Virus record (IMG/VR): IMGVR_UViG_3300045911_000130
Span: 39,464 to 103,463 of that record
DNA length: 64,000 nt
Strand: one strand, 5' to 3'
Source: a virus
Both the position numbers and the translations under genes were made by a program. Of this stretch, positions 7,682-55,964 are shown piece after piece; positions within the stretch are counted from its first letter, which is position 1, and the number at the start of each line of letters is the position of its first letter. The notes under the pieces were generated by a model. That model made no database searches. It saw nothing but the letters and a program-made list of their open reading frames with translations, and was not told the origin of the DNA.

Positions 7682-10600
7682 AACCGCAAAGCACTGTAAC
7701 CAGTAAATTTCTTAATCGTGGTCTCATTCTGAGAAAGGACCAGGATTCCCTAGAGCCCGGAGAGTATTACGAACTGCTGAACATGCAGAGCGTGCAAGAG
7801 GGCGCAATGACTTTGCGTCTGGGCAATGCCGATCTTGCTCCGACGCTTGCTGCTTCTCTGTGGCCTAACACGTCTGGCAACCGCCTGCACACGATCACCA
7901 AGCTCACGCTTTCTCCTGACAATACGCAAAATCCAAGGTACATCGGATATGGGAACCTAATTTACAGAACCACGCCACAGGCAAATGGGGAATACACCAG
8001 CGCCACTTCTATTGCCCTAGACGGCTCTGAAGTGGCGGGTGCGCCCCCGGTCCCGAATCCGCAGCCGTACTTGCAGAAAAATGAGCGATGGGGAAGCGCT
8101 GTCTACAATACCGGAACGCAAGGACAGAGCAGCCAGTATTTTGCGACTTCCAAAGGATTGGCGCGGCATGACGGTGGCACCGGCAAGCTGCAATTGTGGG
8201 GTGTTCCGGCTCCACTTGCGCCCGCCGTAGCGGTCGTTGGCGCGGCATCCATCGTCAATGTCCTGACTCCAAATAGTGGTCCATTCCGCATCCAGATACA
8301 GATTACCGGATCGACGCCGATCAGCGTCATTGGCACGGCTGGATACTACCGCTACAGCTACAACGTTGTAAGCGGGCAGCCTCCGGCGGAGAACATGATT
8401 CTCTACAATGGCTCGGAAACGATCCAAGTAGCAGCAATCGATCCCGCAAGCAACTCATTCTTCGCTTACACCAACACAGCCAAAACCGGTGTCTGGTATG
8501 ATCGCGGAACGTCGCTGCAACCTTCGACGGCTGGCGTTGTGCAGGCAACCGTATCTTTTTTCGCGGCGAAAAATCTCAGCCTAAATGGAGATCCAAAAGA
8601 CCAATTTGATACGGTCGATCCGGTTTATATCTCGATCTATGTTGACCAGCCGCAGGTGATTCAGGATCTTCGTATACGGCTCGGAGTGGGAGAAACAGCA
8701 GATCCGGGGGGCAATCCGACTAATTTTTACGAAACGGTTGTTACTCCGTCTACCATTGCGCCGGTCGTCACGGCAGCGACGGACCCAGCCAATCAGGCGA
8801 ACGTTTACGACTATGCACGGCAACGCGCCGATTTGGTGAATCAGGGTATTGTAGGCGATTTCATCAATGAGAACGACTATCTCTTGCAGCAGACGCGCCC
8901 GCAGGAATTTCCTCCAACGATCTTTGGTGAACCAGTCTGGGTGCAAATCGGGCCGCAGAAGCGCGAATTTGTGACTGTGGGCAAAGCTGGACAGCCCGGT
9001 TTTGACTGGCGCTCAATTACGTCCGTCACGATCATCGCCCGGTCGCAGAATTCGGCCATAACAACGCCGTTCAATGTCGCCTTGGGCAACGTGGCGGCGG
9101 TCGGTGGCGGTGGCCCAGATGCCGCGCAGCCGGGCTATTTCCCGTACAACTACCTGTACCGTTATCGCAACGCCAAGTCGAATGCGCCGGGCAATCCATG
9201 CGTAGATCAGCCGGATAACAGCGGCGTGATCCCCAAGCGCCAGTCGGTTATTGTCCGGGTGCGCGGGACGGAAACCGCCGTGGCGGGGCAGCCGCAACGC
9301 GACGACTTGTATGGCGCTGGAACTCTCCAGGTGTTCCGGCGGGGAGGTCTATTTTCGGACGGCCTCTATCGATTGGTCAAGAACCATTTCAACCCTTTGA
9401 CCATCACCGGAACGATTTCGGGAACGACCCTGACGAAGACGAGCAACGCCAATTGGCAATTTGCATCGTTTTTGGTCGGCGCAAGCGTGACGTACACCAA
9501 CGGCAGCGTGCCGCGCTCGACCACGATTACGGCCATCTTGTCCGGCCAACAGGTGCAACTTGCAGACGCAGACGCCTTTACCGGTGTAATTCAGATTGGC
9601 ACCATTGTCATTGACAACACAGCCGACGAAGATATCCTTGGCGCTGAAGTCATGGAATTCGACAATGACCAGCCAGTCACCAGCACGCTCAAGCAAGCGG
9701 TGTCCGGCGTTATTGGTGCATTCCTATTCGGAGGCGGCGGCATTGGCATCAACCGGATTACGGTGGGCTCACAGCGTGGGGATGCTCCCGCTGTTAGAAT
9801 CGGCTCAATCATTAATATCGGAAGCGGCTCAAGTTATGAGCAAGCTCGAATTATTTTCATCTACGGCAACAATCCGCTCAACATCGAAGTGTACTTCCAG
9901 AAAACTCATACCGTGGGAGAGCAGATCGAAGTCAATGCGGCAGCCGGTCAACCTTGCACGCTTACGTGCGTAGTGGGCGATGCAGCTTTCATCGCGGGCG
10001 ACCCAAATAATGAAGGCCTGTTATACAAAAGCAAACAGGGCAATCCTGAAGCGTTCCCAGTCGTCAATCAGGTAACTCGCAACTTAAATATAGTGCAGGT
10101 TACCGCGCCGTCGCAAAGACTTGTCGAGATCACCGAATGGAATGGCGAGGTTTGCGCTCTTACGTCCGTCGGGATTAAAACCATTCGCATCTGGAATGGG
10201 GATCTTACTCCGCCACAAGAAACTCCAGCCAACCGTGGCTTGATGGATCGCAGATGTTACGCCAAGGGCGACAATCGCCTCTGGTATCTCTCTTATGATG
10301 GTATCTATGCGTGGACTGGCGGCCAAAGCCTAAAGATTTCTGAGGCAGTAAACTGGATCTTCCAAGGGCGAACAGTCAACGGGATTCCTCCTCTCGATTA
10401 CAATAATCTGACTTTTGCCTGCATGGAGTACGCGCAGAACACGCTGTATTTCAGTTATCTTGCACAGAATGGATTGTTCTACCGGCTGCGTTATGAAACG
10501 ATGTTCGACCGGTGGCATTTGGACATCACCAACAGCACGGCTGGGAATACGGATGTTGTCACTGCGTACTATCGAGAACTTGATACTGGACACTTGCTGG

Positions 10601-13600
10601 GCGCTCGATTAAATTCTGATGCGCCATCGCGATTTCAGTTCATTCAGGAACTCGCCTCCGGCACGGTGGGAAGTTCTGACACATTCCCGATCACCGATGC
10701 TACCGGCCTGGGTGGCAACGCGATTAAGTTCAGCATGGCGACTCCGGCATTTACTGGTGGCTCGCCGGAAACGCAGAAGCTCTTCACGCAAGTAATCCTA
10801 GAGCTTTCCAACCCGGATAGCGACGTTGCGGTTGTACCGTATTACGATTTCGCCAGTATCCCAGGCGGGGACAGCTTTATCATTCCGGCTCAGCGTGGGA
10901 CCTGTACGGTTACGGGGACGGCGTGTGCTCGTAATACTGGCGTGCTATTCACTGCCGACATGGTGGGATCAGCAATTCGGTTTTCCAATGGCACGCTGAA
11001 CGTCATAGCGGCTTTCGTCAATGCGAACGCAGTGACGCTACAAACTGCGCAAACTTTTAGCGGTACATTCTATCTTCTCAGGCGTCGGCGTGTTCCGTTG
11101 CCTTTGAATCAGACTCAAATAGTCGGACAAACCCTAGGGCGTGAAGCCTACGCGATATCTTACCAGATCAGCGGCGAAGGCCGCATCGCTCCGACTTTTA
11201 ACAGTCTCACGTTCGACTTTGCTCCGCTTGCTGAGATACAGCGCGGCAAGAATGTTGACTGGGATGATCTTGGATATCCCTATGATAAGTGGCTGAAAAC
11301 CTTAAGCATCGAATACAACATGAACGGGCAAGACGTTCTAATGTATCTCGACACGATCAGCGGGATTGAAGGCGAAACGCAGACGCTCGGAGTAATGCAG
11401 TTTTCTTTAGGAGGCACTGGAACTGGACGCTCCAAGGCGAATATCCCCGTTGTTTCGCAAGCCACGGATCGCGTTATCTGCAAGATGATGCGGCTTCGGC
11501 CAGCGGTTCAAGGTTCTAACATTCAGATTTTTGATTACAATTTAGACTTTGAGCAATACCCGGCTGATATTACGCGCTTCACCGACCCCAGCGACTACGG
11601 CAAGCCATGGGAAAAGTATTTCAATCAGTTGGTCATGGAGGTTGATACTGGCGGCGTGGCTGCGCAGGTTTTCATCTTCATTGACGGTTCGGGCACTCCA
11701 GCGCAAGGTCTGACGGTGACATCCACCAACACCGACCGAATGCGGCTTCTCACGTTGAGAAACGGAATTCGGGGCCGCATGGCGCGGCTTGCTGTGATTC
11801 CAGGTGTGGGCGGGAAGTTCCAGTTATTTAAGCACGACTTCGTGACGACTCCGGCTGACAAAGGGCCAGTTACTCATACCTACGATTGGAGCAATCTTGG
11901 GCATCCAGACGACAAGCGCATGTACCATATGTCGTTTGAGTACGAAGTAACCAATACGATGGAAGTGCAGTTGAGCGGAACTGTCGGTATTGGTAATTCG
12001 CAGGTTCCACAAAACATCACGACGTTTACGCTGACTCCTGGGGGCCGCAAAGAAGTAACGTATCAATTCCCGATTAATTCGGTGTACAAGCTGATCCGCT
12101 TGCAGCCGACGCTGACTAATCCACTTACGGACGCCAAGATCTACGTTCCTCAGTGGCAATTTGAAAAGTATCCACCGGACATTGTGCCTTACACGGAGCC
12201 TTCCAATTGGGGCTCACCATACCGGAAATACTTTCAGCAATTAAATTTGGATGTGGATACTGGCGGCGTCAATGCGACTGTGCAAATCGAAATTGACGGC
12301 AATATAGTGCAATCGCTTACCGTCAACACAACAGCGCTGAATCGTCTAGTCAATCTGACGTTGCTTGGTAACTTACTCGGGAGGCAAGCCCGCATTATCA
12401 ATACTGCGGGGCCGGGCGGCAAGTTCCAACTTTTTAACCACGAATTTATTACGCTTGCAGCCGACAAGGGGCCGGTTCTTCATACCTATGACTGGACCAA
12501 CAACGGCCATCCCTATGACAAACGGTTTTATGAAATAGCATTTGAATATGAAGTTCCAGTGCCGATGAATATGGTACTGGAGGGCCGTTCTGGAATCGGC
12601 GGGAACCAGACGACGACCGTGATTACAACGCTGGCTTTGACGCCGGGCGGTCGCAATATGCAGAATTACGCTTTCCCGAACAATAGCGTATACAAGCAAG
12701 TCCGTCTGAGGCCGGAAGCCGGAGTACCGCCGGAAGGCGCTCGCATCTATCAGCCGGTATTTCAGGCAGAGAACTATCCGCCTGATGTAGTGCCATTCAC
12801 CGAACCATTAGACTACGGCACTCCATACGACAAGTACTTTAATCAATTGGACTTGGACGTGGATACTGGCGGAGTGACCGCTACGGTCCAAGTGGAAATT
12901 GATGGCGCGGTTGTCCAAACCTTGCAGGTGACGACCACTCAATACGACCGTAAGCGTAACTTAACCCTATTGCCGCAGTTGAAAGGCAAGCTTGGCCGCA
13001 TTGTCAACACAGCAGGGCCGGGCGGCAAATTCCAACTATTCAATCAAACTTTTATTGTGGTCCCGGCTGATCCGGGGCCTGTGGTTCATAGTTTCGATTG
13101 GGACAATTTAGGACATCCTTACGATAAGCGCTTAAAGAGTGTAACTCTTGAGTACGACCCAGACGGTGTAAGCGGTGTCAACATGTTGATGGACACTATC
13201 ACCGGCAACGATGGGACCATCCTTACGTTGGACGCATTGACGTTCCCGCTCGCTGGGAGTGACCGCAGCCTACAGACATTTCCGATCCCAGATGGGACCG
13301 TAGTCAAGATGATTCGCTTTCATCCTCAGACTACTGGCGTCAATTGGAAGCATTGGAAGTATACCTTTGACTTTGAGCGGATGCCGCAAGATACGCTTCT
13401 GTTTACGGAGTTCGACGATCTTGGCTATCCATGCGAAAAGATACTTCGCAGCATTAACATTGATGCGGATACGGGCGGAGTGACAGCAGATTTGCACCTT
13501 GAGGTAGACGGACAAATCTCACACACTTTCCAGGTGCAGACGACTGAATTCGACCGAACCAGAGTTTTGACGCCTCCCAGCGACATCATCGGATTCCGGT

Positions 13601-14079
13601 TCCGCATGAAACTTGTACCAGGGCTGGGCGGGAAATTCCAGTTATTCAAGTACCAATACGACCGGCTCTTGGAACCGTGCCGGGTAAACCGATGGGACAG
13701 CTATGAGCAAAGTTTTGGCAGTAATGGGTACAAGTTCATGAAGCAAGTTTGGTTGGAATACACCAGTACTTGCTCATTGGCAATGTTCATCTATCGGGAT
13801 GACGGCGAATTGTTTCACGTGGAACCTCTTCCGGCGCATGACACGCGGTCCGTTTATCGCTTTTTCGTGCCCAAGGTTGGCGACCCTTCTGTCGTTGGTG
13901 CCGAAAAACGTTACAATAAGAGCAAAATTTATAGGTTTGTGATGGTGGCCGACAATACAGACGGCTGGTTTAAGTTCTACCGGGATGCGTCTCGCGTTGA
14001 GACGCTGAACACTGGACAGGATCAGCGGGCTGGATATCAGCAGCACTATCTGTTTACGCAAATGCCAATTCCGGTGTAA
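7678..14079 (+). CDS. Large tail nozzle / tubular-B-like protein (2133 aa) with tandem C-terminal domains
   Basis: N-terminal 'GL...D...L.PGE..EL.N....GAM..R.G' and beta-propeller-like 'LWYLSYDGIYAWTGG...KISEAV' as in P22 gp10/T7 gp12-like proteins; position after adaptors. Confidence 0.65.
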   Translation: MKPQSTVTSKFLNRGLILRKDQDSLEPGEYYELLNMQSVQEGAMTLRLGNADLAPTLAASLWPNTSGNRLHTITKLTLSPDNTQNPRYIGYGNLIYRTTPQANGEYTSATSIALDGSEVAGAPPVPNPQPYLQKNERWGSAVYNTGTQGQSSQYFATSKGLARHDGGTGKLQLWGVPAPLAPAVAVVGAASIVNVLTPNSGPFRIQIQITGSTPISVIGTAGYYRYSYNVVSGQPPAENMILYNGSETIQVAAIDPASNSFFAYTNTAKTGVWYDRGTSLQPSTAGVVQATVSFFAAKNLSLNGDPKDQFDTVDPVYISIYVDQPQVIQDLRIRLGVGETADPGGNPTNFYETVVTPSTIAPVVTAATDPANQANVYDYARQRADLVNQGIVGDFINENDYLLQQTRPQEFPPTIFGEPVWVQIGPQKREFVTVGKAGQPGFDWRSITSVTIIARSQNSAITTPFNVALGNVAAVGGGGPDAAQPGYFPYNYLYRYRNAKSNAPGNPCVDQPDNSGVIPKRQSVIVRVRGTETAVAGQPQRDDLYGAGTLQVFRRGGLFSDGLYRLVKNHFNPLTITGTISGTTLTKTSNANWQFASFLVGASVTYTNGSVPRSTTITAILSGQQVQLADADAFTGVIQIGTIVIDNTADEDILGAEVMEFDNDQPVTSTLKQAVSGVIGAFLFGGGGIGINRITVGSQRGDAPAVRIGSIINIGSGSSYEQARIIFIYGNNPLNIEVYFQKTHTVGEQIEVNAAAGQPCTLTCVVGDAAFIAGDPNNEGLLYKSKQGNPEAFPVVNQVTRNLNIVQVTAPSQRLVEITEWNGEVCALTSVGIKTIRIWNGDLTPPQETPANRGLMDRRCYAKGDNRLWYLSYDGIYAWTGGQSLKISEAVNWIFQGRTVNGIPPLDYNNLTFACMEYAQNTLYFSYLAQNGLFYRLRYETMFDRWHLDITNSTAGNTDVVTAYYRELDTGHLLGARLNSDAPSRFQFIQELASGTVGSSDTFPITDATGLGGNAIKFSMATPAFTGGSPETQKLFTQVILELSNPDSDVAVVPYYDFASIPGGDSFIIPAQRGTCTVTGTACARNTGVLFTADMVGSAIRFSNGTLNVIAAFVNANAVTLQTAQTFSGTFYLLRRRRVPLPLNQTQIVGQTLGREAYAISYQISGEGRIAPTFNSLTFDFAPLAEIQRGKNVDWDDLGYPYDKWLKTLSIEYNMNGQDVLMYLDTISGIEGETQTLGVMQFSLGGTGTGRSKANIPVVSQATDRVICKMMRLRPAVQGSNIQIFDYNLDFEQYPADITRFTDPSDYGKPWEKYFNQLVMEVDTGGVAAQVFIFIDGSGTPAQGLTVTSTNTDRMRLLTLRNGIRGRMARLAVIPGVGGKFQLFKHDFVTTPADKGPVTHTYDWSNLGHPDDKRMYHMSFEYEVTNTMEVQLSGTVGIGNSQVPQNITTFTLTPGGRKEVTYQFPINSVYKLIRLQPTLTNPLTDAKIYVPQWQFEKYPPDIVPYTEPSNWGSPYRKYFQQLNLDVDTGGVNATVQIEIDGNIVQSLTVNTTALNRLVNLTLLGNLLGRQARIINTAGPGGKFQLFNHEFITLAADKGPVLHTYDWTNNGHPYDKRFYEIAFEYEVPVPMNMVLEGRSGIGGNQTTTVITTLALTPGGRNMQNYAFPNNSVYKQVRLRPEAGVPPEGARIYQPVFQAENYPPDVVPFTEPLDYGTPYDKYFNQLDLDVDTGGVTATVQVEIDGAVVQTLQVTTTQYDRKRNLTLLPQLKGKLGRIVNTAGPGGKFQLFNQTFIVVPADPGPVVHSFDWDNLGHPYDKRLKSVTLEYDPDGVSGVNMLMDTITGNDGTILTLDALTFPLAGSDRSLQTFPIPDGTVVKMIRFHPQTTGVNWKHWKYTFDFERMPQDTLLFTEFDDLGYPCEKILRSINIDADTGGVTADLHLEVDGQISHTFQVQTTEFDRTRVLTPPSDIIGFRFRMKLVPGLGGKFQLFKYQYDRLLEPCRVNRWDSYEQSFGSNGYKFMKQVWLEYTSTCSLAMFIYRDDGELFHVEPLPAHDTRSVYRFFVPKVGDPSVVGAEKRYNKSKIYRFVMVADNTDGWFKFYRDASRVETLNTGQDQRAGYQQHYLFTQMPIPV
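10730..14000 (+). repeat. About 10 tandem ~100-aa domains alternating in two types (~203-aa period)
   Basis: Recurrent 'G(H/Y)P.DK(R/W)' and 'G.P..KYF.QL..DVDTGGV.A.V...IDG...GGKFQLF'. Confidence 0.85.
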
Positions 14080-21343: not shown

Positions 21344-23220
21344 TGCCCAAAGTCAAAAGCCTCACGACTGGCAATGTATTGACTGAATTTGAAGCGGCAA
21401 AGAAGTTCCGCGAATCTCCAGATTTGCCGGATACTTACAAGGCGATGTCGAACGCCAATATGCTGCGTGCGATTACTAGGGATTATGGCGACCAATATGA
21501 GATGGTCCCAGATGATCCTCCGGCGCGGCAGACGAATCCGGCGGCATTTACGCGGGAAAGTATTGGTCAAGACATTGCCGAAGGCGGCTGGGGCTATCTT
21601 CGAGCGCCCGCCAAACTTGGCGCAAACATCGTTTCCAGTGTGGGCAATCAGGTGTATCAGGTCGTAAGCGCACTGCCCGATCTTGCCAAATTGCCCATCG
21701 ACAAGAGCCAAGCCCGGATGCGGCATCAATTCCTTACGCAAACGCGCCAAGGTTTGGACCGCAACGATCCGAACTATCAAGCTGTTTTAGCCGAAGAGGC
21801 GCAAGCTCGCAAGGATGCGGCGTTCCCGACCATCGGCGAAATTTGGGATGCACTCTCCGCTGACTACAAGCAAAGATACGGTAGCCTGGATGGCTTCAGC
21901 CGGGCAATCATCGAAGATCCAGCCTCTGTGGCGGCAGACATCGCGACTGTAGCGACCGGCGTGGGCGCGGCAGCCCGAGGCGTGCAATTGGCATCGAAGG
22001 GCGCTGCTGGAATGAAAGCGGCGCAAGTCGCAACTCAGGCCAACCGTATGGCAAGCGCCGTTGATCCGTTCAATGCCGTAGCGGCGGCGGGGAAGTCAGT
22101 GATTCCGTTTCGCAAAGACATAGCGCGTGCTGCGTACAAAACGGCGCTTGACGTTGGATTCCGCGATCCTAGCCGACTCGCTTCGGTGGCCGATACCGGC
22201 CTGGAGCACGGCATTGTCGTCGCCAAACAGGATGAAAGCACGAAGATGAATCCGTTGCGCAGGCTGGTAGGAGATGCTGAAGTGGTTCCGAGCCGGGCAC
22301 GCGCCGAAGGGCGAATCAAAGAACTCACTAAGCAAGTTGACGACATCGTGGCGAACGCTCAACAGGGCGGCGCGTCTATCAATACGCAAGATATGGTTAA
22401 TCGCATCGAAAACGAGCTTGTATCTATGCGTAGAACAATGTCTGGGAGGCAGCAAAGTGATGTTATTTTCAAAAATATCGATAGGTGGCTAGAGGATAAC
22501 AATCTTGTTGGCAGGGATGCGGCTGGAAATGTTGTTCGGGATGCTCAAGGCAGGCCCTTGCAGTATCTTCCTATGTCGCCAGAGCAAGCACTTGATTTGC
22601 GCAGGGCATTGACGGCTGATTTACAGCAGCCCTTGAATCGCGTGGCGCAGAGCAGCCCGATGTCTCCATATGAGATTCGTAGTACGCTTCGCGGCGACGA
22701 AATGGCCCGCCGCGAACTTGTAGGAGAATTGAATAAGATCGATCCGTCTTTGGCTGAAATCGGCATGGAGCAGCGCGATCTTATCGACATCATGAATTCC
22801 ATCGATACGCTGCGTGGCAAGAAGTCGGGCGTCGTAGACTCGCGTGACGTGTATGCCGCTCGTGGTGCGGTTAGTGGTGCCAACACGGTCTACAACACGA
22901 TCACACTGGCAACACGTCTATTACAGCTTCCTGGGGTGCTTAGCACGCTGGCGATTAAGCTGCATCAACGTGGGATTAAGCCAAATACGCGCTTGCAGAA
23001 TATCGTCCGGCAGGCTGGCTTTAACTTGGCGCGATTTAATCAGGCGGCGGAGACGGGTGAAGCAAAGAACCTGGAAGCACTGGAATCCGGGCAAACTTTG
23101 CCTGCCGGTAAAGTCAAAATCGACCTTCTGAAAGCCCGCGAAAATCCGTATGGGGCAGTTACTCAAGTGCCTCCTACGCAAGCGCCTCCAGAAAAACCAG
23201 AGAGGAATCCGTATCGGTAA
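21343..23220 (+). CDS. Internal virion / DNA ejection protein 3
   Basis: 625 aa, Ala-rich helical; 'YKQRYGS..GF.RAI.EDP..VAAD'; TAATG coupling. Confidence 0.6.
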   Translation: MPKVKSLTTGNVLTEFEAAKKFRESPDLPDTYKAMSNANMLRAITRDYGDQYEMVPDDPPARQTNPAAFTRESIGQDIAEGGWGYLRAPAKLGANIVSSVGNQVYQVVSALPDLAKLPIDKSQARMRHQFLTQTRQGLDRNDPNYQAVLAEEAQARKDAAFPTIGEIWDALSADYKQRYGSLDGFSRAIIEDPASVAADIATVATGVGAAARGVQLASKGAAGMKAAQVATQANRMASAVDPFNAVAAAGKSVIPFRKDIARAAYKTALDVGFRDPSRLASVADTGLEHGIVVAKQDESTKMNPLRRLVGDAEVVPSRARAEGRIKELTKQVDDIVANAQQGGASINTQDMVNRIENELVSMRRTMSGRQQSDVIFKNIDRWLEDNNLVGRDAAGNVVRDAQGRPLQYLPMSPEQALDLRRALTADLQQPLNRVAQSSPMSPYEIRSTLRGDEMARRELVGELNKIDPSLAEIGMEQRDLIDIMNSIDTLRGKKSGVVDSRDVYAARGAVSGANTVYNTITLATRLLQLPGVLSTLAIKLHQRGIKPNTRLQNIVRQAGFNLARFNQAAETGEAKNLEALESGQTLPAGKVKIDLLKARENPYGAVTQVPPTQAPPEKPERNPYR

Positions 23221-26200
23221 TGGCTGACACTACTGCACTGATAAAGGGAACGCCTCTCGATGATACAGGCAAAGCAACCTTATACGATAAGTTCTATGCG
23301 TCTAAAAGTTCGCAGGAATTGACATCGTATCTGGATAGCACGCCTCTGCCCAAAGAGGTTAAGGCACAGCTATGGGATCAATGGAATACGGAAGTCAAGC
23401 CGTATTATGCCAAGCAGTCTGCCGGTGGTGCGGCTCCTGTAGCTCCAGTAAATCCGCCTGAAAAGCCGGGCGTATTGTCTTCATTGGCGCGTGGCGCGGT
23501 GTCCGGTGTCGTTCAGGGCACGATGGGCACTATTGGCGGTCTTGCGCAACTTGCGGGCGATGTTACCGGCATCGAAGGCTTGCAGAAGCTTGGGCAAGAA
23601 TATACCGGAACGGCGGAAACCCTGGGGCGTGAAATCTACGGCCAGCAGGGGGAAAACCGCGTCGGCGGATTTGCCCAGCGTGGCGCGGAAGTGTTCACCG
23701 ATCCTTCCTGGTGGGCTCAGACCGCCGGGGAAGGCATGGGCAACTTGCTGACTATGATCGCCTCCGGTGGCGTCACAAAAGCCGCTATCGATCAGGCCAT
23801 CAAGCGCGGTTTGGTGACAGGGACCGCCGCCAAATTCGCTCAGAGCAATGCGCCTGCCATCGTTGCCGGTGGCGTGGGCGGCGTGCAGGCGGCGGCCAAC
23901 ACGTATGCGCAAGCCAAGGCGTCTGGTGCCGATGATGCAACGGCGCTTAAGGCCGCCGGGATGGACTTTGTGCAGAATGCCGCTTTGGGTGCAGCCGGGG
24001 CGAAAATGGGCATGTTCGGCGGCGGATCGCGTGGAGCCACGGTTGCTCGTACCGCTGTGGCGGAGCCCGCTACCAACGTGGCGCAGGCTGGCTTGTCCAA
24101 TTTGATTGCACAGCAGACGTTCGACCCAAATCGCAGCCTTCAGGAAGGCGTGGTCGAAGGTGTCGTCCAAGGCGCGGCGGCGGCTGTGCCTGGAGGGGTG
24201 GCGGGATCGAAGATTCAAGCCCGCAGGCCGCAGGCGGACGCAATAGTCCAAGAGCTTGCGCCAATTGTCCAGAACGCGGCGACGATGGATGTCGCGGCGG
24301 CTGAAGGTGTCATTGCCAAGGCAATCGACACGCTCGATACACTCGTTCCGGGAACGCCGGAATATCAGGCCGTGGTCGATGCCGCGACTCAGGCTGAGAC
24401 GGCGCTGACCCAACGTGTCCAGACTGAAACCCGCCGGGCGGATCAAGACCGGCTGAAGCAAAGCCTGCAAGCTCGACAGGCGCTTCGCAATGCGAAAGTA
24501 CCCGATGCGCCGCCGGAGCGACCTTCGACCGCATTGGAATCAGCAAGCGTGTTGATGGGAGTGCCGGAAGGCGACCTGCAACGCATGGCAGCCCCTCCGC
24601 CGCCGGAGACGCCGGGGCCGTTGCCGGATAGCGTTCCTCCGATGGCCGGGGCCGTTGGCCCAGCGCCCGCACGTCCAGCGCCGGGCATCCGGGCGACCGG
24701 CGCAGAGGCGATTCCCGTCCGGCCAGAGGCGCAGATTCAGGGCGGACGCATCCCATTGCCGGAGCCCGCGCCGCCGCCGGAGCCTGTCACTTTGCCGCAA
24801 AACGTCCCGCCGATGGCTACGGAAGTCATCATGCCTCGACCGGCCACGCCGGAAGCACGTCTACTGCAAGGCACCGTCGAACCCATCGCGCCGCGCCGCG
24901 CAACGTTTCAAGGTCGGGAAATTGCTGTGCCAGAGCCACCGCCGAGAAGACCAGCGCCTGAGCCGTTGCCGGATAGCGTTCCTCCGATGGCGGGCGTAGT
25001 TATGCCAAAGCCTAAGGCGGCACAAACCGGCATGAAAGCGCCGGAGCCCAAACCTATGGAGTCGGGCCAATCCGCTCGCCTCAAGGGACAAGAGATCCCA
25101 ATACCCAAGCAAGTAAAGAAGACGCCGGAAGATGTTGGGCCGCCTTCCGAAATTGCGCCGCCGCTGGCGCGTGCGATATTGCCCGAGCCGATGAAGGGTA
25201 GCGCGAAGATGAAAGTCACGGAGCCGACTCCGATGGAGACGGCGGCCAAACCAAAAATACCGGATGCTGGTGGCAAACTCGCCAAGCTTACTCCAGCCAA
25301 AGAGGTCAAGCCTTCCGGGGATGATTCCAAGGTCGAAGAGCCTGGGACGGTGAAGCTGAAATCAGAGCCAGTGGAAAAGCCTGTGGGAATTGCGGAAAAA
25401 ACTGACGGCGAGCAACCATTGCGCGACGACCGGACCATGAGCATGTTCGGCGAAGACGAACGAAGCGATGCTGAATTGCAGGCGCAGGATATCGCGCGTA
25501 ACCGGGGCGAAGAACTTAAAGCAGTCCGGGCCGAGGCCGCTGAAAATGTAGCGGGCGTCGGCGGCGTGCCAGGCAGCAAAAGCACGCCATATGCAGAGCC
25601 TTACAAGGCGGCCAGGGTTCCGGTCGCCGATATTGCAGTTCACCCAGAAGACTTCCAGTACAAAGCGATCACCGATATGGAATCGGGGACGGGCGAAGCG
25701 CTGAAAGGCGTGAAGCAATGGGATGAAGACAAGGCCGGTGTCATTTCATTGTGGTATGACCCGGTGCGCAAAGAAAACGTAGTCATTAATGGGCATCATC
25801 GTTTGGCACTTGCCAAGCGTGTCGGGCAAAAAGACGTGCTGGTCAAATACATCCGTGCCGACAGCCCTGCGGAGGCTCGTATCATTGGGGCTCTCATTAA
25901 CATTGCCGACGACAAAGGAACCGCGATGGACGCGGCGCGTATCATGCGCGAGGTCAAGATGGACCCCAAGCTATTTGACATGAATCGCTTGGACATCGAA
26001 GGCCGCGTGGCGAGCGATGGCTTGGGGCTTGCCAATTTGACCGATAGTATGTGGCGGCGCGTAGAGACTGGCGAGATCCCGCCGGACGCTGGCGCTGTGA
26101 TCGGGAAGTACCTGGACGCAGGGAGGCAGGCCGACTTCTGGAACTTTTTACGCAAAGAGAATGAAACGGCGCGTGATATGATTCTCAATAACAGGCGGCG

Positions 26201-27254
26201 GTTGAAGTCGCTTGTAGACCGCGCAAACGCCGCAACCGAGAAGGAGGTAGTAAGCGATCAAGGCAATCTGTTCGGCATGGGCGAGATTCGGAGTTCGTTT
26301 AAGGAAGAAGCCGACCTTGTTGATTATGTCAGTGAACGTTTAAGCACGGACAAAAAGCTATTTTCGATGGTGTCCAATTCGCGCAACGCTCAACAGTTGA
26401 TGGAGAGCGGGAACGTATTGGATATGTCGCAGAATGAGCGCAAGAAGGCGCTGGAAGCTGCAATCAAACGCGGGTTCAATAAGCTTTCTAACTTGTCCGG
26501 GCCGTTAAATCGAATGATCCAACAGAACGCGGTAAAACTGATGGATGAAACGTTGACTCAGAAGCAGGCAGCCGAGATCCGAGAACGCAGTTATGAAGAA
26601 GCCAGACGAATCCTCGTCAAAGAACTTGGCCTCGAACGCGATTCGGGGACTGAGGGAGCACCTGCAATTCAACGACCGGCTGGGGATCAAGGGCAGACCG
26701 GGCGCGGAAATCCGCCTGAGGAAAGACGATCCGAAAGACGATCCGCCGAAGAGCCAGAAGAAATCGTGGAAGGAAGAAGAGTAAAGGGGCCGCCGGTAGA
26801 AGTGGCTCAGCCTGAGATCGAGAAGATCGAAAAAAATATCGACGCCAGACAGCTTGATAGGTCGATGAAGAAGGCGGAGGATGAATTCTCTGAACTTACT
26901 GCATCTGGTCAGGCTGAGTACTTAAAGAAAAAGCTGGAACCGATCTACAAAGACGCGCAGAATCGCATTAAGCTTTATAAGGTTGATACCGCGCTTAGGG
27001 ATAGGGGCTTGCAGTATCTATTAGGCGGCAAGAAGCTTAACGCCAACGAAGTGGCAAAACTGGAACGCGATGCTTTGGTCATGCTTCAGGATTTGACAGA
27101 AGTATATCGGTACAAGCTGTTGGTCGAAAATAAGCAGCCAAGCGATATTATTGCCGAGATGGGTAAGGAAATCGGCAGAAGCTTGAATAAGATAGCCAAG
27201 CAAATCGAAGATTGGGAGCAAACGACTTACCGCAACGTAGTTTTCGGGGGATGA
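23220..27254 (+). CDS. Large ejection / polyvalent protein with Pro-rich repeats and a ParB/Srx-like domain
   Basis: Gly/Ala-rich N-terminus, 'LPDSVPPMAG'-like repeats, 'VVINGHHRLALAKR' ParB motif. Confidence 0.65.
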   Translation: MADTTALIKGTPLDDTGKATLYDKFYASKSSQELTSYLDSTPLPKEVKAQLWDQWNTEVKPYYAKQSAGGAAPVAPVNPPEKPGVLSSLARGAVSGVVQGTMGTIGGLAQLAGDVTGIEGLQKLGQEYTGTAETLGREIYGQQGENRVGGFAQRGAEVFTDPSWWAQTAGEGMGNLLTMIASGGVTKAAIDQAIKRGLVTGTAAKFAQSNAPAIVAGGVGGVQAAANTYAQAKASGADDATALKAAGMDFVQNAALGAAGAKMGMFGGGSRGATVARTAVAEPATNVAQAGLSNLIAQQTFDPNRSLQEGVVEGVVQGAAAAVPGGVAGSKIQARRPQADAIVQELAPIVQNAATMDVAAAEGVIAKAIDTLDTLVPGTPEYQAVVDAATQAETALTQRVQTETRRADQDRLKQSLQARQALRNAKVPDAPPERPSTALESASVLMGVPEGDLQRMAAPPPPETPGPLPDSVPPMAGAVGPAPARPAPGIRATGAEAIPVRPEAQIQGGRIPLPEPAPPPEPVTLPQNVPPMATEVIMPRPATPEARLLQGTVEPIAPRRATFQGREIAVPEPPPRRPAPEPLPDSVPPMAGVVMPKPKAAQTGMKAPEPKPMESGQSARLKGQEIPIPKQVKKTPEDVGPPSEIAPPLARAILPEPMKGSAKMKVTEPTPMETAAKPKIPDAGGKLAKLTPAKEVKPSGDDSKVEEPGTVKLKSEPVEKPVGIAEKTDGEQPLRDDRTMSMFGEDERSDAELQAQDIARNRGEELKAVRAEAAENVAGVGGVPGSKSTPYAEPYKAARVPVADIAVHPEDFQYKAITDMESGTGEALKGVKQWDEDKAGVISLWYDPVRKENVVINGHHRLALAKRVGQKDVLVKYIRADSPAEARIIGALINIADDKGTAMDAARIMREVKMDPKLFDMNRLDIEGRVASDGLGLANLTDSMWRRVETGEIPPDAGAVIGKYLDAGRQADFWNFLRKENETARDMILNNRRRLKSLVDRANAATEKEVVSDQGNLFGMGEIRSSFKEEADLVDYVSERLSTDKKLFSMVSNSRNAQQLMESGNVLDMSQNERKKALEAAIKRGFNKLSNLSGPLNRMIQQNAVKLMDETLTQKQAAEIRERSYEEARRILVKELGLERDSGTEGAPAIQRPAGDQGQTGRGNPPEERRSERRSAEEPEEIVEGRRVKGPPVEVAQPEIEKIEKNIDARQLDRSMKKAEDEFSELTASGQAEYLKKKLEPIYKDAQNRIKLYKVDTALRDRGLQYLLGGKKLNANEVAKLERDALVMLQDLTEVYRYKLLVENKQPSDIIAEMGKEIGRSLNKIAKQIEDWEQTTYRNVVFGG

Positions 27255-39455: not shown

Positions 39456-39863
39456 TCATTCCCAATTTGGCACTATCATAGCCCAAGTATCTGCAAGATG
39501 TCCATAGACCTTTTTATCTATGACCTTAATTTCGATATCAGGATAGTACTTTGCCATGCGTTTTAGAGCCGTCTTGCTCTTAGGGTCCATGTATCCCTTC
39601 ACTTCGATGTGATAGAATTTTCCGCCTTCTTTTTCCCAGACGGTGAAGTCGGGCTTGTAAAATCGGGTGCCTCGTTTCACCGGGAACTGATACTCGCGCT
39701 CTTCGTAGGCAAACGCAAATACCTCTTGTAAGGTCTTTCTCCACAACAACATGCGATAAATATTGGCTTCCCAAGCGCTGCGCACATAGATGTCAATATC
39801 GGGGCGCTTACCGGAATCGGCGGCCTTCGGGGGCAGGAATGACTTTCGCTTGTTATCCGCCAT
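39456..39863 (-). CDS. PD-(D/E)XK endonuclease (T7 endo I / DUF1064-like resolvase)
   Basis: 'RSAWE...YE...YKPDF...IEVKG'. Confidence 0.75.
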   Translation of the reverse strand: MADNKRKSFLPPKAADSGKRPDIDIYVRSAWEANIYRMLLWRKTLQEVFAFAYEEREYQFPVKRGTRFYKPDFTVWEKEGGKFYHIEVKGYMDPKSKTALKRMAKYYPDIEIKVIDKKVYGHLADTWAMIVPNWE

Positions 39864-49952: not shown

Positions 49953-51851
49953 TTAAACCAAGTCGAATTCGCTCGTACCCTGGGGCTGCTCGGCGACGAT
50001 CTGCGCGATAGTCGCATCCACGTTTTCGTCGGAGATTTGAGCGATGGGTAAATTACCGTTTCGCTTGCTGATCTCCGCTTCCAGTACGGGGAGCGGCGTG
50101 CCGGTGGCCTTGGAATTCTCGATCAACTTGTATGCGCTATCGCTCTTGATGGCGACTCGCAAGTAAGACTGCATCGATTCGGCCTCATTCGCATTGATTC
50201 CGGTCTTTGCCAGGAATTTGACCGTATCTAGGCTGTTCATGCCTTTTACGGTGCCGAACTCTGCGGCAAGCGTGGCGGTTGCCTCGGTGAACATGGGGAG
50301 TAAGCCACGGATTTCCACGGCGTCCGCCATTGAGTTGGCAAGGGGTGGCAACGCCTTGAGGCGGTCGGCCAGGAATCGGCCAAGCGCCAAAGCGTCTTCT
50401 TTGAAGTAGCGATAGAGATAGGCGCGTCGATCCGGGGGAGTCAGGGCTATCTCAAACTTGTCTAGGCATGTTGCGTACAAGTCGGCGCGTGCGCTGCTGG
50501 ATGGGATTTCGCGGGCGCTTTGGAGGCCCAAGAAACCCATCATGAGATACGCAACGTTGTTCTTGTCTGTGCCGCTGCGGGCGAAGTGCTTCTGCCAACG
50601 TTCGCCAATCGTGCCGCTCGTGGCGACCTGTGGATCGACTACGGCGGATTGAGTTTGAGGATTGGAAAAAGTAGGGGCGTCTAGCGCTAATGGCTGGGCC
50701 GGTGGGGGCGGCGGCGCTGGGGCCGGGGCGGGACTCGGCGCGGGCGGCGGCTGGGCGGCGGTCGGTTGCGGCGCGGCGTTTTCCTGCGTCGATTTCGGCG
50801 GTACGGGGTCGGGTAGGATGGGCGTTACCGGGGCGGGCGGCGCTGGGGCTGCTGCGGGCGCGGGCGCGGGTTCTGCTGGTGGCGGGGCCGGGGCCGGGGG
50901 CGGTGCTGGGGCTGCTGCTGGGGCGGCGCTGGGCGGTTCCTCCGGGGGTGGCGGCGCAAGTGGCGGCGGTTCGCTCGGGGCGGCGGCGTTGGCTGCTGGC
51001 TTGCGGCCTCGCTTGGTTGCCGGGGGCGCGGCCTCTTCTGTGGGGGCCGGGGCCGGTGCTGGCGCGGGTTGGGCCGGTGCTGCGGTTGCCGGTGCTGGCT
51101 GCGTGACGGGGGCGGCCTGGGCGGGCGCGGGCATGGTTACAACTTTCGACTCTGGGGCCGGGCCGGGCGCTGGCTTGCTTCCCACTTTGAAAGCGTCATC
51201 GGGTGGGGCATCGGCGGGGGCGTTGGCGTCTTCGGCGCTGTATGCAAGCTCGTCGGCGGTGATGGTTCCCACTAAGATTCCAGCTTTGCGCCATGCTAAA
51301 GCCTCGGAACATTTCCCGGTCATGAAATACTGACCTTGAAACCATATCGGGCTGTTCCCTCGGTACTCTTCATAGTAAGCGCGGGCGGTGGTCGGGTGGT
51401 CGTCTCCTTTGATATAGAGCGTGGTATCGACATAGTAACCGTGGTCGTCGATGCCGGGCGTTTGCAAGGGCATACCGTTGTAAAGCCCATTCTTCCGGGC
51501 TGCGCTCCTGTATGCGTCTATGTGGACAACATACGCGGCCTTCTGGCGGTTGGCGAACTTATCGAATCTGAATTCGATATGCACTTCGTTCGTCAACGGG
51601 TCCAACTTGCGGCGGTGACAGAACACGATAAACTTGGCGAATTCTGAGCGGCTAGTATGCTTGGGCGGGCAATCCCGGTGCAATAATAGTAGCTCTTCTG
51701 GCTTCCAGGTGTTCTCCGTGAGTCTGGATAGGTTGTTAAGGAATTCGCTGTAAGGAATTCCCTGGCTTTGTTGTTCGGCCTCGCTGGGCGGCGTTGGCTG
51801 CTCGGGCTGGCCTGGGGTTGGCTTTTGGTCGTTGGTCTCATCCTGAGACAT
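49953..51851 (-). CDS. RecT/Red-beta family ssDNA annealing protein with a long Pro/Ala linker and an extra C-terminal domain
   Basis: 'F..FC....LDPLTNEVH...VVHIDAYRSAA...Y.G...EY...SPIW....FMTGKCSEALAWRKA'. Confidence 0.8.
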   Translation of the reverse strand: MSQDETNDQKPTPGQPEQPTPPSEAEQQSQGIPYSEFLNNLSRLTENTWKPEELLLLHRDCPPKHTSRSEFAKFIVFCHRRKLDPLTNEVHIEFRFDKFANRQKAAYVVHIDAYRSAARKNGLYNGMPLQTPGIDDHGYYVDTTLYIKGDDHPTTARAYYEEYRGNSPIWFQGQYFMTGKCSEALAWRKAGILVGTITADELAYSAEDANAPADAPPDDAFKVGSKPAPGPAPESKVVTMPAPAQAAPVTQPAPATAAPAQPAPAPAPAPTEEAAPPATKRGRKPAANAAAPSEPPPLAPPPPEEPPSAAPAAAPAPPPAPAPPPAEPAPAPAAAPAPPAPVTPILPDPVPPKSTQENAAPQPTAAQPPPAPSPAPAPAPPPPPAQPLALDAPTFSNPQTQSAVVDPQVATSGTIGERWQKHFARSGTDKNNVAYLMMGFLGLQSAREIPSSSARADLYATCLDKFEIALTPPDRRAYLYRYFKEDALALGRFLADRLKALPPLANSMADAVEIRGLLPMFTEATATLAAEFGTVKGMNSLDTVKFLAKTGINANEAESMQSYLRVAIKSDSAYKLIENSKATGTPLPVLEAEISKRNGNLPIAQISDENVDATIAQIVAEQPQGTSEFDLV

Positions 51852-52531: not shown

Positions 52532-53572
52532 CTATTCCTCGAAGTTGAATGCGCGGGTGGGCGCGTCCTGGGTCATGGTCTCCAGCGTGGCGGAGATTTG
52601 CGCCATCTGGCGGGCGACTACTTCGCGCAAGGGTTCCTGTTTGCGCAAGTCCTCCGGGGTGACTCCCTTGAGGATGTCGCGGGCCTGGGCTGCAATCTTT
52701 TCGAGTTCCACGTCGTTGCAGAGATTCCGGGCGCTGAATGCGTCAAGGAAGTCTGTAATGTTGGTGATGGCGGAATCCCTGAAAATTTTGGGTTTGCCGT
52801 TCTCGCGTTCGCCTGTCAGGCGTTCGGCCAAATTGCTGACAAGTTGCTTTAGGCTTTCACGTAGGGCGAAAGTGATCTCTTCGGCGGCGGTGTTGAGTTT
52901 GGCGTTAAGCTTGGCCGATTCACGCTTCAGTAACTCGGGGTTGACGTTCTCGGCGTCGTTGGGGGTGCTGATTCGCACGAATTCCCAATCGAAGTAAAAC
53001 GTCCTGCGGGCGTCGGCGGTGTTGGGGTAGTCGGCATCGGCGAACACTCCGCGCAAGCGAAGTGCGGCGTCCTCGCGGGCGGCGGCATAGGTTGCCATGA
53101 ATGCGTTAACAAGTTCCTCGCGGCGGCGCTGGTATGCCTGTAATTGCTCGTCGATGGCTTCCACGCTCACGATGGGCGCAAGATACATTCCGTCCTTAAG
53201 CCATGACGTGCGCAAGGTCTGGGAGTAAAGCCACTGGCGGATTTCTCCGTCTAGCTTGGCGATGGCGTCGTATTCCTTGCTGTCGATCAACTTTTTGCTG
53301 GCGGCGATAAGTTCCTTATCGGCGTCAACGTCAATCTGGTCTTTGCGCAAGGTGCGGCGAATTCCAAGCTTGCCGCTTGAAACGGACAATACCCAAGCTT
53401 TAGCTAGGATATCTTCGCTGGTCTTCTTGCTGACAACGGGGCGCGGCGTGGCGGCCTCGCCTGGGAGAATGATATCCTCCAGGGCGGGTATGTCGCGGGG
53501 GGCGGTTGCGATGGTGATGTCGTCGAAGTTGAATTCTTCGGCGGCGGCGGGTGCTTCTAATGTGGTGTTCAT
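52532..53572 (-). CDS. DUF3150-like protein
   Basis: 'SKKLID...DGEIRQWL...GMYLAP...DYP...KPKIFRDS...FLDAF...NL.ND.EL'; next to the AAA module. Confidence 0.6.
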   Translation of the reverse strand: MNTTLEAPAAAEEFNFDDITIATAPRDIPALEDIILPGEAATPRPVVSKKTSEDILAKAWVLSVSSGKLGIRRTLRKDQIDVDADKELIAASKKLIDSKEYDAIAKLDGEIRQWLYSQTLRTSWLKDGMYLAPIVSVEAIDEQLQAYQRRREELVNAFMATYAAAREDAALRLRGVFADADYPNTADARRTFYFDWEFVRISTPNDAENVNPELLKRESAKLNAKLNTAAEEITFALRESLKQLVSNLAERLTGERENGKPKIFRDSAITNITDFLDAFSARNLCNDVELEKIAAQARDILKGVTPEDLRKQEPLREVVARQMAQISATLETMTQDAPTRAFNFEE

Positions 53573-53666: not shown

Positions 53667-53867
53667 TTAGTGGCGCTGTTCGACCTTGGCGGCCTGTGTT
53701 AATGGGCGGGATTGCTTCCGGGTGATCTTCTCAGTACCTCCAGCTAAGCGGGACATTGCCGTAATGAATTCGGCGGCGTTCTGGTGGTTAGCGGCGCTAA
53801 CCTTATCGGTTTCGGTCTTGATGGTGCCATCTTCCAGGATTGTGATTTTGAACGTATCGCGGGCCAT
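53667..53867 (-). CDS. DUF2997-like small protein
   Basis: 'FKITILEDGTIKTET...A.EF...LAG'; TAATG coupling to the upstream gene. Confidence 0.55.
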   Translation of the reverse strand: MARDTFKITILEDGTIKTETDKVSAANHQNAAEFITAMSRLAGGTEKITRKQSRPLTQAAKVEQRH

Positions 53868-54226
53868 TACTTCGTTACCTCGTATTGGGTGAGTCCCTGT
53901 TTCGTTGTGCTCTTCTTTAGGCTCCATCCGAACTTCTTAGCCTGGGTCAAAACTACTCCATTGGAGTAGGCGCGTTTGATGCGCTTGGCGACTTCCTGCG
54001 CTTCCTCGTCTTCCTGATCGTTGGTGAGACTCGCTTTGTATGTGCGGGTCGTGGTGTTGAATGCGCCAAGATAGCGGCGCGTTTGCTGGTCGTAAAGTTT
54101 CAGCGTATCGGGCTGATAGCTGAGCGCGTTGGCTGTGATCTGGGCATCGGCTAATCCTACTTTCAGGGTTGCCGGGTCCATCTTGTCAAGTACGATTGAT
54201 ACTTCGCGTATCGAGTCACATGGCAT
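53867..54226 (-). CDS. Protein in the DUF1257/Ycf35 position of the module
   Basis: 'MPCDSIREVSI...D...L..GL...IKRAYS..VV..QAKKFGW'; SD AGGAGG; lies between the AAA and DUF2997-like genes. Confidence 0.5.
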   Translation of the reverse strand: MPCDSIREVSIVLDKMDPATLKVGLADAQITANALSYQPDTLKLYDQQTRRYLGAFNTTTRTYKASLTNDQEDEEAQEVAKRIKRAYSNGVVLTQAKKFGWSLKKSTTKQGLTQYEVTK

Positions 54227-54299
54227 AGGTTTTTCCTCCTGTTTGAAATTATATAAGATACAGGGCATAGAATCCTATACCCTGTATCATTTTTAGGTG

Positions 54300-55964
54300 T
54301 TACTCGTCGCGGTCGATGGCGCGGGTGCCGCTGGGGTCATCGCCGATACTTGGGCGCGTGCTGGTCGTGCGGTGGTGGTACGTTCCAGCATAGCTTGCGC
54401 TTACATACTTCCCGCTGCATTCCTGGCGTAGCTTCTCGATCTTGTTCCCGCTGCTCTGGGTGACGTTAACAACGAATTCGGCGGCCTCCATCAGCGTGAA
54501 TCCCATGATGGCGGCGTTCTCGGCGCATTTCTGAATGTCGCGGCCTGCCCATCCTTCGCTATCGGGGATTTGTTGGTCTGGGTCAAGCTTGTACTTGCGA
54601 ATGTACAGGTCCCAAATTACGGCGCGTTCGTCGGCGTTGGGTAGGTCAAAAAAGAACGTGGGCAAGCGAAAGCGGCCTAACAGTTCTGGCGGCATACCTG
54701 CGATCTGGTTGCACGTCGCGATAGCAAGGATCTTGCCTTTCTTTCCGGCGATGGCTGAGACGGTCTTGAGCGCGGCGGCTAGTTGCTGATTGCTCTGGCC
54801 TACAATTCCGGCCTTCATGTCGGCAATGTTGCACGCTACGGTGGGAACTTGGGCCTGGTTTCCGGCGGCCTTCGCCATCATGCTCTTGCCTGATCCGGGC
54901 GGGCCGATTAGGATGCTGCCCGTAACTTCCTCGTCCTGCATCCAGGTTAGGATTTTCCCTAACATTTCCTGCGTTACTCCGCTGCTGTCTCCGGTCGATC
55001 CTCCGAACATCTTTTCGATTTCGTCAAGCCACAATACTACGCGGGTTTCGTTGCGTTCCAGGTAGCGGGCCATGAAGCGCTTGCAGTTGTCGCTGCCTCC
55101 AATGCTGGCGAAGTCCTCGCCACCTCTCCAAACACTCAAGCCGGGTACTTGCTCAATGGTGCGGCGTTTGCGTTCCCATACTGCCTGCACGTCGATGCTG
55201 GTTTGCTTCGTGGCGGCGTCCTGGCTCACGCTCATCGCGATAACTTGCTCGGCGCTGAATGCGGATAAACCCGTCGTGGCGCTGATAATCGCCTTCGTGA
55301 TTTCGGGCGTGGGCGTGATGCCTCCAGAATTCAGGATGCTGTTAGCAATTGCGCCTAGCTCGTCTTCGTTGGGTAGCGGTTCATCGATGACTAGCAAGTC
55401 TTGGGACAATGAGGCGGGCGGCGTGAGACTCGGCGCAAGTAACACTAGGGTCCTCCAAGGGATTTGCGCACCCTTGTATAGATCGCGCAAGTTCCATGCG
55501 GCCTGTTGAACGTCGGGCGCGTCGGGGCTGAGATACAGGTGCGCGTTCATCACAATAACAATGGTCTGCTGGGGCGCATAGCGGGCTACGTGCATAGCCT
55601 CGGCGGGGTTGGTCTTCATGCTGCCTACCTCGATAATCGCGGCGGCGCGTTTCTCCGGCTCCTTCGGGAGATTCTTCGCCTCTTCCTCGGTCATGCACAT
55701 GGCGACAATGGCCTCGTATCCCTTGGGCGTGATGGGCCGAATACCTTGCATGATATCCCAGCAAACAATGGGCGGTACTCCGAATTTCTTGGTAGTCGCG
55801 GCGGCTCGGATGTTCTGAATCGTCGCGGTAGGGTCGGGCGTGGTGATCGCGATTAGCGGCGTTGATACTTGCCGGGCGGCGCGAAATTGTTTCATGCAAG
55901 CGCTAAGCTGCTCTATTGGGGTAACTTGCGCTTCGTTCTTGGGTGCTTCTGTGGTGGCGGTCAT
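54300..55964 (-). CDS. Ycf46-like AAA+ ATPase with permuted Walker motif order
   Basis: Degenerate N-terminal AAA domain; 'F.SIGG.DN.K', 'WLDEIEK', then 'GPPGSGKS', 'IATCN...PPELLGRF...FFFDLP'. Confidence 0.85.
   Translation of the reverse strand: MTATTEAPKNEAQVTPIEQLSACMKQFRAARQVSTPLIAITTPDPTATIQNIRAAATTKKFGVPPIVCWDIMQGIRPITPKGYEAIVAMCMTEEEAKNLPKEPEKRAAAIIEVGSMKTNPAEAMHVARYAPQQTIVIVMNAHLYLSPDAPDVQQAAWNLRDLYKGAQIPWRTLVLLAPSLTPPASLSQDLLVIDEPLPNEDELGAIANSILNSGGITPTPEITKAIISATTGLSAFSAEQVIAMSVSQDAATKQTSIDVQAVWERKRRTIEQVPGLSVWRGGEDFASIGGSDNCKRFMARYLERNETRVVLWLDEIEKMFGGSTGDSSGVTQEMLGKILTWMQDEEVTGSILIGPPGSGKSMMAKAAGNQAQVPTVACNIADMKAGIVGQSNQQLAAALKTVSAIAGKKGKILAIATCNQIAGMPPELLGRFRLPTFFFDLPNADERAVIWDLYIRKYKLDPDQQIPDSEGWAGRDIQKCAENAAIMGFTLMEAAEFVVNVTQSSGNKIEKLRQECSGKYVSASYAGTYHHRTTSTRPSIGDDPSGTRAIDRDE

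Follow-up and report, generated by a model that had tools for sequence, protein, structure and literature searches.

Can an AAA+ ATPase keep its fold and its active site when the Walker B motif precedes the Walker A motif in the chain? This question is raised by a gene on the minus strand, at 54300..55964 (stop codon included), of a 64,000-nucleotide stretch of viral DNA, called the window here, which covers positions 39,464 to 103,463 of IMG/VR virus record IMGVR_UViG_3300045911_000130. The gene encodes P0001, a two-domain AAA ATPase of 554 amino acids. In AAA+ and other ASCE ATPases, Walker A, Walker B, and sensor 1 are taken to follow one another invariably along the chain, an order that is assumed by domain models, annotation pipelines, and mechanistic schemes alike. 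An initial annotation, made from the letters of the window, had claimed that Walker B lies N-terminal to Walker A in this protein, and that two internal blocks have exchanged places while the reading frame and the catalytic residues are kept. It proposed to look for local matches in swapped order, for independent homologues with the same order, for a predicted structure, and for bridging of the block junctions, and it named as a refutation a structure with DEIEK away from the nucleotide pocket and another Walker B after the P-loop. As described below, the results agreed with the annotation on all of these points, and we consider it likely that P0001 is a block-swapped AAA ATPase with a canonical fold and probable activity.

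The source record is 103,463 bp long, carries direct terminal repeats, and is rated 100% complete; the window is its final 64 kb. DNA of this phage was detected in hot-spring and microbial-mat metagenomes. P0001 is a genuine product of this complete 103-kb tailed phage; in it, a degenerate AAA-like N-terminal domain is followed by a catalytic classical-clade AAA domain. Every motif string quoted in the annotation was found in the 554-residue open reading frame (ORF), and in the quoted order: FASIGG (residues 285-290); VVLWLDEIEK (309-318, window about 55040-55011), with DEIEK at 314-318 and D314/E315 as the Walker B residues; the GDSSGV...ILTWMQD segment, which ends at residue 344; GSILIGPPGSGKS (349-361, window about 54920-54882), which contains Walker A with K360, the GPPGSGKS part occupying residues 354-361 (window 54882-54905); GIVGQS (386-391); IATCN (415-419), with N419 as sensor 1; and PPELLGRF (425-432), which includes R431. 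P0001 hence has the classical AAA features, Walker A GxxxxGK[ST], Walker B hhhhDE, the sensor 1 asparagine, and the arginine finger, and arranges them as Walker B, Walker A, pore loop 1, sensor 1 instead of the classical Walker A, pore loop 1, Walker B, sensor 1.

Current profiles recognise the protein in fragments. The Pfam profile PF00004 matched P0001 with 60.5 bits (cut-off 21.2), the match being split into two stretches, of which the best covered profile positions 2-54 only. NCBIfam and PADLOC scans matched the Walker A block only, so that P0001 receives neither a named family nor a defence-system assignment. Database records name the swapped proteins 'AAA family ATPase' or 'hypothetical protein', and no NCBIfam model extends beyond the Walker A block. 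Both the fragmentary matches and the generic names are explained by the broken chain order.

The exchange was located by comparison with proteins of normal order. In a phmmer search against PDB sequences, residues 309-355 matched the Walker B part of a VCP-like ATPase (chain 381-429), residues 349-403 its Walker A part (chain 322-376), and residues 413-487 its sensor 1 through lid (chain 425-504). Likewise, a profile built from 16 normal-order relatives in viral contigs matched P0001 in four pieces. Profile positions 19-247 matched residues 38-306 (expect value, E, 6.6e-28). This piece takes in the D1-like, degenerate AAA-like N-terminal domain (residues about 30-260, 55185..55877), in whose sequence GxxxxGK[ST] is absent, and the linker with helix α0 and its IGG motif (residues 262-306, 55047..55181; helix 292-304 in the predicted structure), which runs straight into the Walker B strand and not into β1. 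The moved block, consisting of β3 with Walker B (VVLWLDEIEK), the GDSSG loop, and α3 (residues 309-346, 54927..55040), matched profile positions 315-354 (E 8.7e-11). It is followed by the Walker A block, which comprises β1, GPPGSGKS, α1, β2, pore loop 1 (KAGIVGQS), and α2 (residues 348-406, 54747..54923), matched profile positions 255-313 (E 2.3e-16), and could also be aligned with the Walker A regions of VCP, Cdc48, and FtsH. Finally, β4 with sensor 1 N419, α4 with the arginine finger R431, β5, and the helical lid (residues 410-535, 54360..54737) matched profile positions 355-481 (E 4.4e-32). All of these features lie on the minus strand.

In contrast, the same profile matched the normal-order AAA+ protein of Rhizobium phage L338C in one collinear stretch. 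With the public phage family phrog_8638, P0001 was matched in four stretches (E 3.9e-49) and the normal-order protein of viral contig L067 in one (1e-82); P0001 has both the degenerate N-terminal domain and a C-terminal AAA domain with phrog_8638-type lid signatures. No second Walker B follows the P-loop of P0001, in which α2 (390-406) is joined by a five-residue link to the sensor 1 strand (412-418). The chain order is α0, then β3-Walker B-α3, then β1-Walker A-α1-β2-pore loop 1-α2, and then β4 (sensor 1), α4 (arginine finger), β5, and the lid. Judged from the profile matches, two adjacent blocks are exchanged exactly, with the rest of the chain undisturbed, and the order lies far beyond chance.

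The same order recurs widely. Among the database matches listed (40-56% identity, >90% coverage), DEIEK stands about 40-45 residues ahead of the P-loop in 120 of 120. When 355 sequences drawn from the protein database, IMG/VR contigs, and species genomes were sorted by the order of their profile matches, 251 were swapped, 88 normal, and 16 partial, and none was intermediate. Among 1.84 billion cluster representatives searched with a profile, at least 150 further proteins were listed (E 1e-215 to 1e-172), nearly all matched in one collinear stretch, indicating that the swapped clade has well over 150 clusters at 50% identity. At least 175 relatives were counted in viral contigs, and species genomes, those of Acidobacteriota, Armatimonadota, Nitrospirota, Myxococcota, and Planctomycetota among others, contain at least 365. 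The swapped order was also found in prophage regions, including one in the complete Nitrospira moscoviensis NSP M-1 chromosome, and in gp103 of the isolated phage Tunturi_3. On the strength of these homologues, the swapped order is a family trait and not an assembly error.

The AlphaFold2 model of P0001, computed from a 101-sequence alignment, has a mean predicted local distance difference test score (pLDDT) of 94.1 and a predicted template modelling score (pTM) of 0.88. Its elements follow one another as β3 (309-313), α3 (330-344), β1 (348-353), α1, β2, α2 (390-406), and β4 (412-418) with pLDDT 93-98, the strand 309-313 and the helix 330-344 of the moved block reaching 96-98. The whole model superposed on the D1-D2 tandems of p97, Cdc48, DRG1, and NVL with Z 18-19.8 and about 405-416 residues aligned (7lmz_C: Z 19.8, 405 residues, root-mean-square deviation (rmsd) 3.8 Å). 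The C-terminal domain matched p97 D2 (3cf0_A: Z 16.7, rmsd 2.5 Å, 205 residues aligned, 21% identity) and Vps4 (6bmf_B: Z 17.1, 212 residues aligned, within model residues 272-524). The number of aligned residues equals that of α0, the Walker A block, and the part from β4 to the lid, that is, everything but the 38-residue moved block, which is left out of the superposition because a sequential aligner cannot place it.

The placement of the moved block was addressed by mean-field direct-coupling analysis of 385 sequences (effective number, Meff, 295), in which about 36,000 pairs were ranked. As a result, the top pair, V309-A406, couples the start of β3 with the end of α2, which are chain neighbours in normal AAA proteins. 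Helix α3 is coupled to α4 through L335-P425 (rank 3), to α2 through E333-N392 (rank 7) and W341-S403 (rank 8), to pore loop 1 through T331-K384 (rank 9), and to β4 through W341-A414 (rank 17), while I316, just after Walker B, pairs with A416 of β4 (rank 21). The method works on this family, since known contacts were recovered too, namely the α0-α1 ladder (294/298/302 with 363/367/371) and the β2-α2 contacts. The top couplings to α2, β4, and α4 thus indicate that the moved block keeps its normal neighbours, and set the DEIEK strand beside β4 and α2. We infer that the three-dimensional fold and the active site are canonical. In the established AAA sheet order, 5-1-4-3-2, each rewired link would reach a strand adjoining its usual target: α3 would lead to β1 and not β4, α2 to β4 and not β3, and α0 to β3 and not β1, with all crossovers probably remaining right-handed. 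Because each rewired link would land on an adjacent strand, the Walker B strand would stay in its usual slot, between β2 and β4 and beside the P-loop.

Conservation of the catalytic residues was counted over 385 swapped sequences. The Walker B glutamate (E315) and the Walker A lysine (K360) are present in all 385, the sensor 1 asparagine (N419) and the arginine finger (R431) in 384 each, and the Walker B aspartate (D314) in 381, with glutamate in the remaining four. Such counts argue that strong purifying selection holds these residues, and together with the four-piece mapping they bear out the claim that frame and catalytic residues survived the exchange. Two members of the swapped family, P0188 and P0126 (810 and 896 amino acids), carry intein-like insertions in the P-loop (GPPG/C...HN/CAKS) and in sensor 1 (FIAT/C...HN/CN), and inteins typically occupy conserved sites of needed proteins. 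From its sequence, the swapped enzyme looks active. It probably hydrolyses ATP in a ring, since the Walker B strand is placed beside the P-loop, and R431 probably acts on the adjacent subunit. In 136 of 247 members of the swapped family (55%), alanine replaces the glycine ahead of the Walker A lysine (GPPGAAKS), whereas the normal-order sisters keep GxGKS; P0001 itself has the standard glycine. Three other members (P0238, P0251, and P0266) likewise have long chains, matched in two stretches.

How often the swap occurred was read from an IQ-TREE maximum-likelihood tree, built on 402 alignment columns outside both blocks. A single branch parts 55 swapped from 20 normal-order proteins, with a Shimodaira-Hasegawa-like approximate likelihood ratio test (SH-aLRT) value of 100, so that one change suffices for the swap. 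By this tree, the swap arose once, in a Ycf46-like phage lineage that already existed. Because the normal order is, to our knowledge, that of all other AAA+ proteins, the swapped one is the derived state. Most likely, the β1-to-α3 segment was duplicated in tandem, after which one copy would have lost its first half and the other its second half. The junction residues fit duplication with such reciprocal losses: a proline stands ahead of β3, as in the normal-order '...AP-CVLFVDE', and an invariant glycine ahead of β1, as in 'PKG-VLLLGPPG'. The L049 protein, considered as a duplication intermediate, was rejected; what resembles a first Walker A in it is a GxxGxxKT that occurs by chance in α0.

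Three genes follow the ATPase gene on the same strand. The first is a DUF1257-like 133-amino-acid ORF (53867..54268, with M15 at 54226 as the likely start), from which jackhmmer reached a family with a Pfam DUF1257 match in 20 of 26 members, the best at 1.7e-15. The next, a DUF2997-like ORF of 86 amino acids (53667..53927, likely start M21 at 53867), was linked by hhalign of its family (probability 93.3%, E 2.6e-7) to the genuine DUF2997 family of related loci, many of which have a true DUF2997 gene (1.1e-15) alongside the ATPase. Direct Pfam scans of these two proteins and 42 close homologues gave no DUF1257 or DUF2997 match. The likely start of the DUF2997-like gene, 53867, coincides with the stop of the DUF1257-like gene, and this overlap suggests translational coupling. 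The third gene (52532..53572) encodes a DUF3150-like protein of 346 amino acids (PF11348, 28.1 bits, cut-off 24.9). Of the viral loci, 54 of 55 swapped ones and 75 of 87 normal-order ones have a same-strand homologue of this gene downstream of the ATPase, as do 61 of 77 genome loci of the swapped form. By these family links, the ATPase gene heads a conserved four-gene module of Ycf46-like AAA, DUF1257, DUF2997, and DUF3150.

The DUF3150-like, DUF2997, and DUF1257 neighbours are present in both the swapped and the normal-order clades, and, with proteins of either order in the same module, the swapped enzyme can be argued to do the same job as its sisters. Jointly with the products of its DUF1257-like, DUF2997-like, and DUF3150-like neighbours, the ATPase probably unfolds or remodels a substrate or partner protein. 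Our best guess is a ring-forming remodeller, in which the inactive D1-like domain and the small partners would supply substrate or adaptor binding. The AlphaFold2 model of the DUF3150-like protein has a pLDDT of 85.9, and in the protein atlas this protein has viral hypothetical clusters only.

Two further genes recur near the ATPase. About 3.6 kb downstream of the ATPase, past the DUF3150-like gene, 57 loci from both the swapped and the normal-order clade carry an 89-amino-acid ORF (e.g. L205:9896-10165) that matches neither Pfam nor PHROG and may be the module's fifth member. A 201-amino-acid radical S-adenosylmethionine gene, resembling the activase of anaerobic ribonucleotide reductase, was found near the ATPase in 36 swapped-clade loci (e.g. 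L152:4334-4939), and probably reflects related prophages rather than the module.

Could the unusual order nevertheless be an artefact of assembly or gene calling, a chimeric contig or a local mis-join in this one record? The record is metagenome-derived, and the contigs that bridge all three junctions come mostly from the probable source sample. However, the order is common to hundreds of proteins (35-56% identity) from independent assemblies, an isolated phage, and a complete bacterial genome; contigs from other samples' runs cross junctions 2 and 3 (X9 record 18, X10 record 3); and the frame is open, with invariant catalytic residues. We give this explanation practically no weight. Alternatively, the DEIEK segment might belong to the preceding degenerate domain or form a separate element, leaving the C-terminal domain as a nucleotide binder or switch that lacks Walker B, and not a hydrolysing motor. 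As the N-terminal domain is AAA-like, one could imagine a Walker B left over from a tandem ancestor, and the reduced arginine motif of P0001 would agree with it. Against this, the N-terminal domain of the AlphaFold2 model already has its own full set of strands and lid (residues 37-244), the block is exactly the profile segment 315-354 that directly follows 255-313 in the normal-order sisters, the top coevolving pairs bind it to α2, β4, and α4 of the C-terminal domain, and D/E, K, N, and R are near-invariant together. We judge this reading improbable.

It is just as doubtful that the swap is real and inactivating, with P0001 a pseudo-ATPase scaffold kept for binding its module partners. The alanine in GPPGAAKS in more than half of the members, and a pore loop 1 that is short of an aromatic residue, would be at home in such a scaffold. 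Pseudo-enzymes, however, normally lose catalytic residues, whereas 381-385 of 385 sequences, from a clade of more than 150 clusters at 50% identity, retain the Walker A K/S, the Walker B D/E, the sensor 1 asparagine, and the arginine finger; the inteins target the P-loop and sensor 1, and the normal-order sisters fill the same module. The account that we favour, a block-swapped ATPase of canonical fold and probable activity, has several points to its disadvantage. The moved block was placed by way of superposition counts, strand calls by DSSP, and coevolution; AlphaFold2 and the coupling analysis share one sequence signal and are not fully independent. P0001 and its near relatives read ELLGRF (426-432, window 54669-54689) where the family reads ELRRRF, so that R431 is alone of the three arginines and those found at 429 and 430 in most members are missing, and pore loop 1 (GIVG) has no usual aromatic residue. 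Among the 355 classified sequences, no duplication intermediates with the order Walker A, B, A, B were found, and the proposed origin is a model. For the DUF3150-like model, Foldseek returned no match at E <= 0.001, and VIA-align only generic helical bundles with Z <= 9.

The nearest known relatives are the normal-order Ycf46-like phage AAA proteins of phrog_8638, such as L338C_050 of Rhizobium phage vB_RleS_L338C (AHC30467.1) and those of viral contigs L067-L082 and L163-L239. They share with P0001 the two-domain architecture, 23-28% identity over residues about 120-530, the DEIEK, the GDSG loop, the TW(M/L)Q/ND, and the WTGAEI..CC-type lid motif, besides the module neighbours. They differ in the order Walker A, Walker B, sensor 1, and the swapped clade departs from them also in a shorter arginine motif and, often, in the alanine before the Walker A lysine. 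Within the swapped clade, gp103 of Tunturiibacter phage Tunturi_3 (XOB77284.1), which comes from a cultured phage-host pair, is 36% identical to P0001 over 84% of the protein and shows the same four-piece swapped profile match, but has another host and other gene neighbours; its record says 'ATPase' only and does not mention the permutation. Compared with the type II classical AAA proteins (p97/VCP, Cdc48, NVL/Rix7, and DRG1/Afg2), on whose D1-D2 tandem the model superposes, P0001 has a D1 without a P-loop, lacks a p97-type N-terminal domain for substrates or adaptors, and has a D2 of permuted chain order, in which about 40 residues cannot be aligned sequentially.

A precedent for a working P-loop nucleoside triphosphatase with a non-standard motif order is given by the circularly permuted GTPases YjeQ/RsgA and YlqF/RbgA, which are true circular permutations of the TRAFAC GTPase domain (G4-G5-G1-G2-G3). 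P0001, in contrast, exchanges two adjacent internal segments of an ASCE-type AAA+ core and leaves both domain ends in place. Full-text literature searches on AAA+ proteins with an altered Walker order (permuted, reversed, or swapped), on Ycf46, and on the DUF families, with most subscription journals outside the scope, yielded no description of such a protein. On balance, we lean towards regarding the clade of P0001 as the first natural case of an AAA+ (ASCE P-loop) core in which two adjacent segments are exchanged, with Walker B first and the active site and catalysis retained, an arrangement that was fixed once and kept across a very large phage lineage.

If this is true, the AAA+ fold would be independent of its universal β1-to-β5 chain order, and its tolerance of rewiring would be shown by a large, strongly selected clade in which that order is broken. 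The swapped and normal-order sisters in the same module would then form a natural matched pair for relating connectivity to folding, to communication between subunits, and to pore-loop mechanics, and would also let the link among pore loop 1, α2, and Walker B be examined. Tunturi_3 and its host offer one cultured pair usable for genetics. Attention is further drawn to the widespread Ycf46-like AAA/DUF1257/DUF2997/DUF3150 module in phages of Acidobacteriota, Nitrospirota, Armatimonadota, and others.

Elsewhere, the window encodes a major head protein, tail proteins, and methyltransferases, and its leftward block includes a DnaB-like helicase, a superfamily 2 (SF2) helicase, a PD-(D/E)XK exonuclease, and a RecT-like protein. 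A 632-amino-acid protein (49953-51851, minus strand) has a RecT/Bet-like annealing match at residues about 45-218 only, its remaining 400 residues being without a family match. In the structural region, two very long ORFs were observed on the plus strand, at 7678-14079 (2133 amino acids) and at 23220-27254 (1344 amino acids).

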